A stretch of 64,000 nt of DNA from Escherichia coli (GTDB taxonomy: Bacteria > Pseudomonadota > Gammaproteobacteria > Enterobacterales > Enterobacteriaceae). The stretch lies in NCBI RefSeq assembly GCF_024502345.1, contig NZ_JALDNN010000001.1; one strand, 5' to 3'. The position numbers were made by a program, and so were the translations under genes. Positions 58,089 through 59,907 of the stretch are shown here, piece after piece. Within the stretch, counting starts at the first letter, position 1. Each line of letters begins with the position of its first letter. Below the pieces are notes generated by a model, which was given only the letters and a program-made list of their open reading frames with translations, did not search any database and had not been told where the DNA came from.

Positions 58089-58562
58089 CTAATCTCTCAA
58101 CAACGCTCCCGGATATCCCAGCTGCCGCCAGGCTTCATACACCACTACCGACACCGCATTGGACAGGTTCATGCTGCGGCTGTCTGGCACCATCGGAATC
58201 CGAATTTTTTGTTCAGCGGGCAGGGCATCAAGAATGCTCGCTGGCAGGCCGCGTGTTTCCGGGCCGAACATCAGATAATCGCCATCCTGATAGCTTACGG
58301 CGCTGTGAGCAGGCGTACCTTTCGTGGTGAGGGCAAACAGGCGCTGGGGATTTTCTGCTTCGAGGAACGCGCTGTAGTCATGATGACGCGTAACGGCGGT
58401 AAACTCGTGATAGTCCAGCCCCGCGCGGCGCAGGCGCTTATCGTCCCAGGCAAATCCCATCGGTTCGATGATATGCAGACGAAAGCCGGTATTAGCGCAA
58501 AGACGGATGATGTTGCCAGTATTTGGCGGAATTTCTGGTTCGTAAAGTACGATGTTTAGCAT
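58089..58562 (-). CDS. trmL: tRNA (Cm34/Um34) 2'-O-methyltransferase (157 aa)
   Basis: Translation matches TrmL/YibK. Confidence 0.9.
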
Positions 58563-58607: not shown

Positions 58608-58715
58608 CGTGCGGCCTTTTCCCCTCACCCCGGCCCTCCCCCTGTCTCTTGATCAGGAGATCTGATCAAGAGACAGCTCCCTGAGGGAGAGGGTTAGGGT
58701 GAGGGGGCTCAAACG
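58608..58715. repeat. GC-rich imperfect palindrome of about 100 bp with a central pair of inverted 15-bp repeats; one arm is a perfect 19-bp match to the Tn5/IS50 inside end
   Basis: CTGTCTCTTGATCAG-G-AGATCTGATCAAGAGACAG at 58642-58676 flanked by CCCCTCACCCC.../...GGGTGAGGGGG inverted arms; three GATC sites and one AGATCT site. Confidence 0.7.
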
Positions 58716-58716
58716 A

Positions 58717-59907
58717 CTATGCCGCATTCCCTTTCGCCATCGGAGCCAGTGCCGTAGGCAACTCTTTACCCAGCCCCTGCACCAGCGAATCTTGCGTAAT
58801 TTCACTGATCGATTTCGCGCCAGTCAGCGTCATTGCCACTTTCATCTCTTTCTCGATCAGATTTAGCAGGTTAGCTACACCCGCCTGGCCCGCTGTTGCC
58901 AGCGCATACAGGAAAGCACGACCCAGCAGTACGGTGTCGGCACCGAGCGCAATCATACGCACGACATCAAGCCCGTTACGAATTCCGCTATCCGCCAGAA
59001 TGGCGATATCACCTTTCACCGCATCTGCAATAGCGGGCAACGCACGAGCGGAAGAGAGTACACCGTCCAGCTGGCGGCCACCGTGGTTAGAAACCACAAT
59101 TCCATCAGCACCAAAACGTACTGCATCGCGCGCATCTTCCGGATCGAGGATCCCTTTGATCACCATCGGGCCATCCCAGAAATCGCGGATCCACTCAAGG
59201 TCTTTCCATGAGATGGACGGATCGAAGTTATTCCCCAGCCAGCCGATGTAATCTTCCAGTCCGGTCGGTTTGCCGAGATAAGCTGAGATATTACCTAAAT
59301 CATGTGGACGACCGTTCAGGCCCACATCCCACGTCCATTGCGGATGCGTCACCGCCTGCAAGTAGCGGCGCATTGCCGCATTTGGGCCGCTCATACCTGA
59401 ATGCGCATCACGGTAGCGTGCGCCCGGTGTCGGCATATCCACGGTGAAAACCAGCGTCGAACAACCCGCTGCTTTTGCTCGCTCCAGCGCGTTACGCATA
59501 AAGCCGCGATCGCGCAGTACATAAAGCTGGAACCACATTGGGCGCTTGATGGCTGGCGCGACTTCTTCAATCGGGCAAACGGAAACCGTCGAGAGAGTAA
59601 ACGGAATGCCATGCGCGTCCGCCGCTTTGGCTGCCTGAACTTCGCCACGACGCGCATACATGCCACACAAACCCACCGGTGCCAGTGCTACCGGCATCGA
59701 CAATTTCTCATTAAACAGCGTCGTTTCCAAGCTTAAGTCAGACATGTTTTTCAGAATACGCTGGCGCAGTGCCACTTCTGACAAATCTTCCACGTTGCGG
59801 CGCAGCGTGTATTCAGAATATGCACCACCATCCATATAGTGGAACAGGAACGGCGGCAGAATGCGTTGCGCTGCGGCGCGATAATCGCTGGCTGCGGAAA
59901 TAATCAT
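58717..59907 (-). CDS. lldD: L-lactate dehydrogenase, FMN-dependent (396 aa)
   Basis: Translation matches LldD. Confidence 0.95.

Follow-up and report, generated by a model that had tools for sequence, protein, structure and literature searches.

A palindrome of 35 bp, here called P, lies between trmL and lldD in Escherichia coli and is probably the fossil footprint of an insertion sequence (IS) of the ISEc13 family. The IS would have landed in an inverted pair of BoxC repeats and then lost its body through a deletion that did not depend on transposase. P was studied in the window, which is the whole stretch of 64,000 nucleotides of contig NZ_JALDNN010000001.1 (NCBI RefSeq assembly GCF_024502345.1) that was analysed. 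The evidence comes from the match of P to the right terminus of the IS family, from its BoxC flanks, from copies of P at other loci and from the target preference of intact IS copies.

Organization of the trmL–lldD spacer

Both bordering genes are encoded on the minus strand. The spacer that separates them in the window is 154 bp long and holds three adjoining pieces, namely a left flank, P and a right flank, with the following features:

58089–58562, minus strand: trmL, the downstream gene (open reading frames and RefSeq annotation of a record identical over the spacer)
58621–58641, plus strand: left flank piece CCCCTCACCCCGGCCCTCCCC, the remnant of BoxC/TMECO no. 18 in reverse orientation, CCCCTCACCC CGG CCCTCCCC (Table 1 of PMC4666352 and alignment to MG1655)
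58642–58676, no strand: palindrome P, CTGTCTCTTGATCAG-GAGAT-CTGATCAAGAGACAG (direct reading of the sequence)
58642–58656, plus strand: left arm of P, CTGTCTCTTGATCAG, whose last 13 nt equal the inner arm of the IS (AAGTCTCTTGATCAG in the IS)
58657–58661, plus strand: spacer of P, GAGAT, the loop of the palindrome
58658–58676, minus strand: 19-mer CTGTCTCTTGATCAGATCT, shared with the inside end of IS50 and the right end of the ISEc13 family
58651–58654, 58659–58662 and 58664–58667: three Dam sites (GATC) within 17 bp, read from the sequence
58677–58707, plus strand: right flank piece CTCCCTGAGGGAGAGGGTTAGGGTGAGGGGG, which is BoxC/TMECO no. 17 minus its first 4 nt, CTCCC TGA GGGAGAGGG TTA GGGTGAGGGGG
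58677–58685, plus strand: CTCCCTGAG, the presumed surviving 9-bp target copy, followed by a G-rich block
58717–59907, minus strand: lldD, the upstream gene and the last of lldPRD (open reading frames and RefSeq annotation)

The initial annotation, made from the letters of the window, had described two inverted 15-bp repeats facing each other across 5 bp at 58642–58676, and these are directly visible: the right arm (58662–58676) is the reverse complement of the left arm without a single mismatch. The window of 64 kb holds the 15-mer at these two places and nowhere else, even when up to two mismatches are allowed, against a chance expectation of 0.09, and 0 of 100 shuffles reached two occurrences. 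The annotation had also noted the absence of a 9-bp target duplication, which holds, as a direct 9-bp comparison around P matches at 2 of 9 positions. Its outer flanks, described as GC-rich inverted repeats, are supported by folding. As single-stranded DNA, 58608–58715 is predicted to form one long hairpin of −34.2 kcal/mol (z = −5.9), and for the spacer RNA, transcribed from the minus strand, a single hairpin is predicted as well (−86.4 kcal/mol, z = −6.6).

The flanking pieces belong to the BoxC/PIT/TMECO repeats, which have the consensus CCCTCNCCC-N3-6-GGGNGAGGG-N3-GGGNGAGGG (PMC4666352). TMECO no. 17 (3,781,061–3,781,028) and no. 18 (3,781,121–3,781,156) form an inverted pair in this spacer of MG1655 (Table 1 of PMC4666352), where no. 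17 reads CCCTCTCCCTGAGGGAGAGGGTTAGGGTGAGGGG and both motifs are complete. In the window the same two motifs are truncated, no. 18 being reduced to its two outer blocks, and the core between them is foreign to BoxC. The suggestion that the element is a native palindromic repeat family is therefore correct for the flanks and wrong for P itself. TMECO motifs were reported never to be found with transposons or transposase remnants, and their loci to be unusually variable (PMC4666352). Within the searched literature, no link was found between intrastrand-triplex or BoxC motifs and insertion sequences, nor any occurrence of the palindrome core.

Alleles of the spacer in Escherichia coli

The spacer exists in several forms. 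In MG1655 (NC_000913.3) it is 197 bp long, with about 45 bp between the two BoxC motifs and no P, and alignment to the window places P where MG1655 has 76 bp. An identical element at this locus in K-12, which would have told against the initial annotation, is ruled out, as MG1655 holds a different allele. Of 5,426 complete E. coli genomes, 792 carry the P allele with identical junctions, E. coli B among them, and the allele is also found in gut metagenomes; further alleles measure 185, 72 and 47 bp. A simple ancestral "empty" allele, consisting of a single five-block palindrome, occurs in none of the 5,426 genomes, nor was any genome found to carry a full IS precisely at the junction seen in the window.

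Three other records touch on this spacer. NZ_CP026085.1 (L010, 97187–137340; L numbers denote sequence records) is titled "DH5alpha" and carries the P allele, with a 100% match over the spacer of the window. This genome is unlike K-12 in size (4.83 Mb) and in gene content, as ehaG is intact and the LPS core cluster is of a non-K-12 type; its strain label looks wrong. In a metagenome contig (ERZ1673739; L049, 22–54) an ISEc13-family element, within which the contig starts, is joined at its right end to CACCCCGGAGGGGCGAGGGAGAAAAAAAGAGTGCGGTGTC. This is BoxC no. 18 of the E. coli lldD–trmL spacer, and the junction marks an independent insertion into the same spacer. In MG1655 (L009, 1519–1715, reverse strand), 69 bp between the BoxC motifs have a perfect 9-bp direct repeat, CCCTCTCCC, at either end, as though they were an old insertion that had duplicated its target; the empty allele expected in that case is absent from the 5,426 genomes.

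Relation to IS50 and to the ISEc13 family

The initial annotation had matched the right-hand 19-mer to the inside end of IS50 in Tn5, and this match is correct. In the Tn5 record used for comparison (NC_009980.1, L117), the outside end CTGACTCTTATACACAAGT lies at 59–77 and the inside end CTGTCTCTTGATCAGATCT lies where expected, at 1574–1592 on the reverse strand, at the transposase stop and beside aph(3')-IIa. Window positions 58658–58676, read from the right, agree with this inside end at 19 of 19 positions, two of the GATC sites included. A Tn5 transposase sequence, used as a query, gave a 100% match to IS50R in plasmids. Dam methylation of the GATC sites in the IS50 inside end lowers the use of that end. 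The likeness to IS50 ends with the 19-mer. IS50 reads ...GGGGATCAAGATCTGATCAAGAGACAG; internal to the 19-mer it continues ...GGGGATCAAG, encodes the transposase C-terminus GIKI* and has no inner arm (NC_009980.1). The window reads CTGTCTCTTGATCAGG where IS50 reads ggggatcaag. The window also lacks an adjoining IS50 body, a transposase gene and the 9-bp duplication, and the next 14 nt inward match ISEc13-family elements, not IS50.

Megablast of the spacer led to the 3′ ends of pseudogenes annotated as "IS4 family transposase". Over 33 contiguous nucleotides, 58644–58676 is identical to the right terminus of ISEc13-family elements (33/33 in L001, L002 and L007). The family bears the PGAP name "IS4-like element ISEc13 family transposase" and belongs to the IS50/Tn5 group of the IS4 family; in the searched literature ISEc13 appears in resistome surveys only. 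An intact copy on an E. fergusonii plasmid (L007), annotated under that name, has the right end ...AGATCTGATCAAGAGACAG, the left end CTGTCTCTTATACACAAGT and a flanking direct repeat of 8 bp. Its transposase matches the solved Tn5 transposase with E = 5e-83 and 40.9% identity. The left end of this copy (L007, 401–419) is the IS50 outside end (L117, 59–77) with T for A at position 4, a base also present there in the engineered hyperactive mosaic end of Tn5.

The right end of the family has the form ...AAGTCTCTTGATCAG GAGAT CTGATCAAGAGACAG, a native 13-bp inverted repeat with a 5-nt spacer, the outer arm of which is the terminus. In the IS it reads ...GTG ATG AAG TCT CTT GAT CAG GAG ATC TGA TCAAGAGACAG; the inner arm encodes the transposase C-terminus ..VMKSLDQEI*, and GAGAT is part of the last transposase codons (GAG ATC TGA). 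Given the 33-nt match and the lack of an inner arm in IS50, P holds the inverted repeat native to the right end of ISEc13-family elements, and IS50 is rejected as its parent. Thus, the proposal of a transposon-end scar is supported as far as the scar is concerned, with the ISEc13 family and not IS50/Tn5 as the source.

P differs from the IS at the two bases ahead of the inverted repeat, which are CT in P and AA in the IS. Before GTCTCTT, full IS copies read ..GATGAA (rarely ..GATGGA, ..GGCGAA or ..GGCGAT), whereas every copy of P reads CT, and CT at the start of the left arm creates a second, outward-facing terminus. The IS body of about 1.5 kb is gone. A tblastn search with an ISEc13-family transposase found no homologue in the window, and the ISEc13-family left end CTGTCTCTTATACACAA is absent at P, where only CTG could derive from it.

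The 5-nt spacer varies in orientation. It is GAGAT or ATCTC in copies of P (L013, L015–L017, L020, L022 and L023), and ATCTC or ATCCC is also found inside full IS copies (L031, 10936–10968; L074, 6886–6918), so both orientations occur in the full IS. The flip changes the transposase C-terminus there from ..DQEI* to ..DQIS*, and the hairpin loop apparently flips. In L094, L098, L114, L039, L065 and L086 the last 300 bp are only about 70% identical to L007 (72% for the transposase), yet the 33-nt palindrome arms are identical. Since such diverged relatives keep identical arms, the inner arm seems to be conserved at the DNA level, although the search demanded exact arms and is biased in this respect.

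Copies of P at other loci

A scan of one genome per species for exact arms found 13 loci. Five are in Serratia silvae, two each in a soil Proteobacteria metagenome-assembled genome (MAG) and in Escherichia sp. MOD1-EC7003, and one each in Serratia proteamaculans, Budvicia aquatica, Salmonella enterica subsp. diarizonae and Rahnella woolbedingensis. Together with a plasmid copy in Rahnella aceris and metagenome matches, these give 19 unique site sequences at about 17 independent sites. Most of the sites lie inside BoxC-like palindromes, at their centre, and these identical fossils in the BoxC-like repeats of other enterobacteria indicate that the ISEc13 family targets such repeats.

The flanks of P take two forms. 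They are perfectly inverted in L011 (16 nt) and L021 (13 nt), and near-direct 9-mers surround P in L100 (7/9) and L080 (6/9), the best of the 19; a perfect 9-mer direct repeat is found at 0 of the 19 unique site sequences. Unique right ends that lack a transposase gene comprise 17 sites with exact P and one other (L097), a uniformity that is partly due to search design, as exact arms were required and other decayed remnants were invisible.

The spacer between a dipeptidase gene and fhuE in Rahnella provides a second locus with alternative alleles. P is present only in R. aceris Y9602. In R. aceris ZF458 and R. victoriana, whose alleles were read, an inverted BoxC-like pair plus a spacer is present. 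For seven more plasmids under the names R. aceris or R. aquatilis, the two-piece match of 613 bp is the same as for ZF458. The left half of the ZF458 allele reads CTCCCTCCCC TGCGAA GGGGAGGG TTG GGGTGGGG and is followed by about 55 bp and the right half, CCCCCTCCC AAC CTCCCCC TTCGCA GGGGGAGGAG. The P allele reads CTCCCTCCCC TGCGA|P|TTCGCA GGGGGAGGAG, with P in place of 97 bp that run from one loop to the mirror position in the other. This comparison identifies P as the derived state. E. coli and Rahnella share the same architecture, in which P replaces the interior of an inverted BoxC pair.

Empty sites were also sought for other copies. For the two copies in Escherichia sp. none was recovered, the E. 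coli spacers being too diverged at megablast sensitivity, and an exact-protein look-up for the copy near cheW in Serratia silvae returned the same allele again and one short unrelated contig. In a second Serratia assembly (L122, GCA_965138905.1) a contig breaks inside P at the cheW–mcp spacer, and P appears to disrupt short-read assembly. The dipeptidase–fhuE spacer of a plasmid of R. aquatilis H145 (L120, 76–860) is about 780 bp long and has an unrelated insert where the BoxC pair or P would be.

Target preference of the IS family

Metagenomes were scanned for the 33-nt terminus with its spacer left free. The 91 loci recovered comprise P-type ends and right ends that are contiguous with a transposase gene, the latter with 31 unique flanks. 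Six full copies have perfect 8–9-bp duplications, and such duplications in full-length copies with both flanks include CTGCAAGAA, CTGTAAGAC, CCTTATAG and CTATCAGG. L094 and L098, both intact, lie within BoxC hairpins and have perfect 9-bp duplications centred on the loop, CCCACAGGG and CCCTGTGGG. They measure 1,495–1,498 bp, have open reading frames of 459–460 aa and encode transposases 72% identical to that of L007; their insertion sites read CCCTCTCCCACAGGG|IS|CCCACAGGGAGAGGG and CTCCCTCTCCCTGTGGG|IS|CCCTGTGGGAGAGGGTTGGGGTGAG. A plasmid-borne IS fragment adjoins BoxC as well (GAGACAG|CCCTCAGGGAGAGGGCCAGGATGAGGG).

Read outward, the flanks of the family are C/T-rich at positions 1–4, A/T-rich at 5–6 and G-rich at 7–14. 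GGG lies within +9 to +15 in 20/31 unique IS flanks and 27/36 P flanks, against a background of 4.8%. A BoxC G-block lies within 18 nt in 5/31 IS flanks (16%) and 21/36 P flanks (58%), against a background of 0.7%. The ISEc13 family thus has a strong preference for targets in which 9 bp separate a C-run from a G-run, an arrangement that BoxC hairpins supply in abundance. Targeting of the loop of a dispersed chromosomal palindrome family is also seen in IS1397 and ISKpn1, which insert into the loop of REP/BIME palindromes; these belong to the IS3 family, have REP as their target and make a shorter duplication.

The right junction of the window, |CTCCCTGAG-GGAGAGGG, fits the profile of the family, with a 9-bp target followed by a G-run. 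The left outward flank does not fit, as it starts with GGGG where the profile has C/T at positions 1–4, and the junction of the no. 18 remnant with P is not a native insertion junction.

A second recurrent target follows a terminator T-run at unrelated loci: ...GAAAACCCCCAGC(C/T)AGGCT, the element, and GGCTATG(C/T)CGGAGGATATTTATT. It is found in L020 (2286–2320), L080, L031, L043, L057, L068, L070, L079, L082 and L084, and it is occupied by an IS of 1,551 bp, by internally deleted IS copies of 954–957 bp or by P. About 25 bp of flank are conserved on each side, which looks like another small repeat family. The arrangement ...CCCCCAGCTAGGCT|X|GGCTATGCCGGAGG was considered as one orthologous locus in three states of decay; this was rejected because the outer flanks differ, and it is a second repeated target instead of a single locus.

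Origin of the palindrome

The favoured account begins with one IS copy that would have inserted into BoxC no. 17 of the inverted pair, leaving the right junction still native. The IS body would then have been lost in a deletion driven by inverted repeats, for which transposase need not have been present, and the inner 76 bp of the BoxC pair would have gone with it. Two recA-independent routes can be envisaged, each of which would give exactly CTG followed by the 33 nt. In fold-back, the nascent strand would pair with itself through the terminal 13-bp repeat, copy the terminus and its flank in inverted orientation and re-anneal to the template at the partner BoxC, with deletion of the IS body and of the interior of the BoxC pair. 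In slippage, replication would slip between GTCTCTT of the left terminus (CTGTCTCTTATAC...) and GTCTCTT of the inner arm, which would be an analogue of the nearly precise excision of Tn10 and Tn5. Overlapping ends that are too close to pair and the lack of a transposase gene make P most likely immobile and functionless. According to the folding predictions, P lengthens the hairpin that is possible in the spacer DNA and in the lldD–trmL RNA, and this hairpin could affect lldD–trmL read-through or RNA stability.

Fold-back would account for CT in place of AA, for inverted flanks and for the loss of host DNA at mirror positions, and also for the enrichment of P over full IS copies in BoxC sites described above. 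The Rahnella allele fits it within 1 nt, and L011 and L021 fit exactly, while the near-direct flanks of L100 and L080 fit slippage. Some observations speak against the footprint account. The left junction in the window is CCCTCCCC|CTG, whereas slippage predicts ...CTCCCTGAG|P and fold-back predicts ...CTCAGGGAG|P, and under either route an extra loss of 8–9 nt on the left, ending exactly at the terminus, would have to be assumed. The lack of a 9-bp duplication around P, of a full IS at the junction seen in the window and of the predicted empty allele also count against it. A self-copying element would likewise account for the strict uniformity of the 35-mer and for its presence five times in a single Serratia silvae genome.

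The nearly precise excision of Tn10 and Tn5 reportedly depends neither on recA nor on transposase, and is said to involve deletions between short repeats inside inverted repeats that leave a short palindromic remnant of the two ends. P resembles such remnants in being a short palindrome formed from element ends. The Tn10 and Tn5 cases arose in the laboratory, in composite transposons whose IS copies are long and inverted, and the Tn10 remnant is about 50 bp long. P, in contrast, would stem from a single IS in natural populations, is 35 bp long and is accompanied by loss of neighbouring host DNA, and its flanks are often inverted and not direct. Hairpin ends made by transposase were discarded on reasoning as the source of the palindrome; they would join the termini tip to tip, whereas those of P face outward.

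Alternative explanations

P could be an active non-autonomous element of 35 bp with two inside-type ends, moved in trans by an ISEc13-family transposase with a preference for BoxC-like hairpins. Such a miniature element, which the initial annotation had also proposed, is an unlikely reading. It would explain why the same 35-mer is found at about 17 independent sites in at least six genera and in several copies in Serratia silvae, the soil MAG and Escherichia sp., why the flanks of P share the profile of IS flanks, and why L100 has a near-direct 9-mer; the terminal CTG, which transposase would need, is present on both arms. Bacterial MITEs likewise end in the inverted repeats of a known IS, lack a transposase gene and may be present in several copies per genome. 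Against this, most copies have no direct duplication, and at both loci with a known alternative allele P replaces sequence (76 bp in E. coli, 97 bp in Rahnella) instead of being added to it, so that the filled site is not the empty site plus element and duplication. In addition, the left end agrees with the 19-mer at only 15 of 19 positions and the two 19-bp ends overlap by 3 bp. P is far below the usual size of MITEs, evidence of movement is lacking, and, given the architecture of the Tn5 synaptic complex, ends that lie 35 bp from each other on the same duplex would not be expected to pair.

Two further explanations carry still less weight. A very improbable reading is that P is a native palindrome under selection (such as an RNA hairpin, a binding site for a protein or a signal for replication or segregation) that resides with BoxC and was captured by the IS as its end. 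The long hairpin predicted for the spacer RNA, the near-constant location of P within BoxC-like palindromes and the three clustered Dam sites would suit such a role. However, P is absent from most E. coli genomes, MG1655 among them, and in Rahnella it is derived and strain-specific. A search of Rfam matched no family, with a best score of 32 bits against a threshold of 80 and hits to generic miRNA-hairpin models only. A role as terminator or promoter was rejected, as the hairpin is not followed by a U-tract and promoter-like sites are absent; the sole terminator-like site nearby is a small BoxC stem. The conservation of the bases is sufficiently explained by the IS, where the same bases encode the transposase C-terminus and stop and form the terminus. 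A scar of IS50 or Tn5 itself, whether natural or left by laboratory mutagenesis or engineering with Tn5 inside ends, has almost nothing to recommend it beyond the identical 19-mer. The inner arm assigns all 33 nt to the ISEc13 family, and the carriers of the P allele include complete genomes from animals, humans and the environment as well as E. coli B and gut metagenomes.

Implications for BoxC repeats and the ISEc13 family

The window itself is ordinary, as it holds an inert fossil in a hypervariable spacer, and P is no evidence of Tn5 engineering there. The 35-mer may, however, pass for Tn5 vector or mutagenesis sequence in contamination screens and in the trimming of Tn-seq reads. Of wider interest is a natural relative of Tn5 with a strong structural target preference, the C-run, 9 bp and G-run exemplified by BoxC loops, whose decay repeatedly leads to one exact palindrome of 35 bp. 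In the searched literature, neither this uniform, recurring footprint nor the targeting of BoxC appears to have been described, and P sites offer a natural system in which to study palindrome-driven excision of insertion sequences.

The marked local variability of BoxC/PIT/TMECO hairpins has been put down to triplex DNA (PMC4666352), and the present data form a testable alternative to that account. A broader proposal, tentative and rather doubtful as it stands, is that BoxC hairpins are favoured landing pads of Tn5-like IS elements across Enterobacterales, and that P is either a uniform 35-bp footprint left by template switching or the smallest known mobile element. If the template-switch version were true, hairpin-driven switching would delete the interior of inverted BoxC pairs. 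If either version were true, part of the genomic instability ascribed to BoxC triplexes would be the traffic of insertion sequences.
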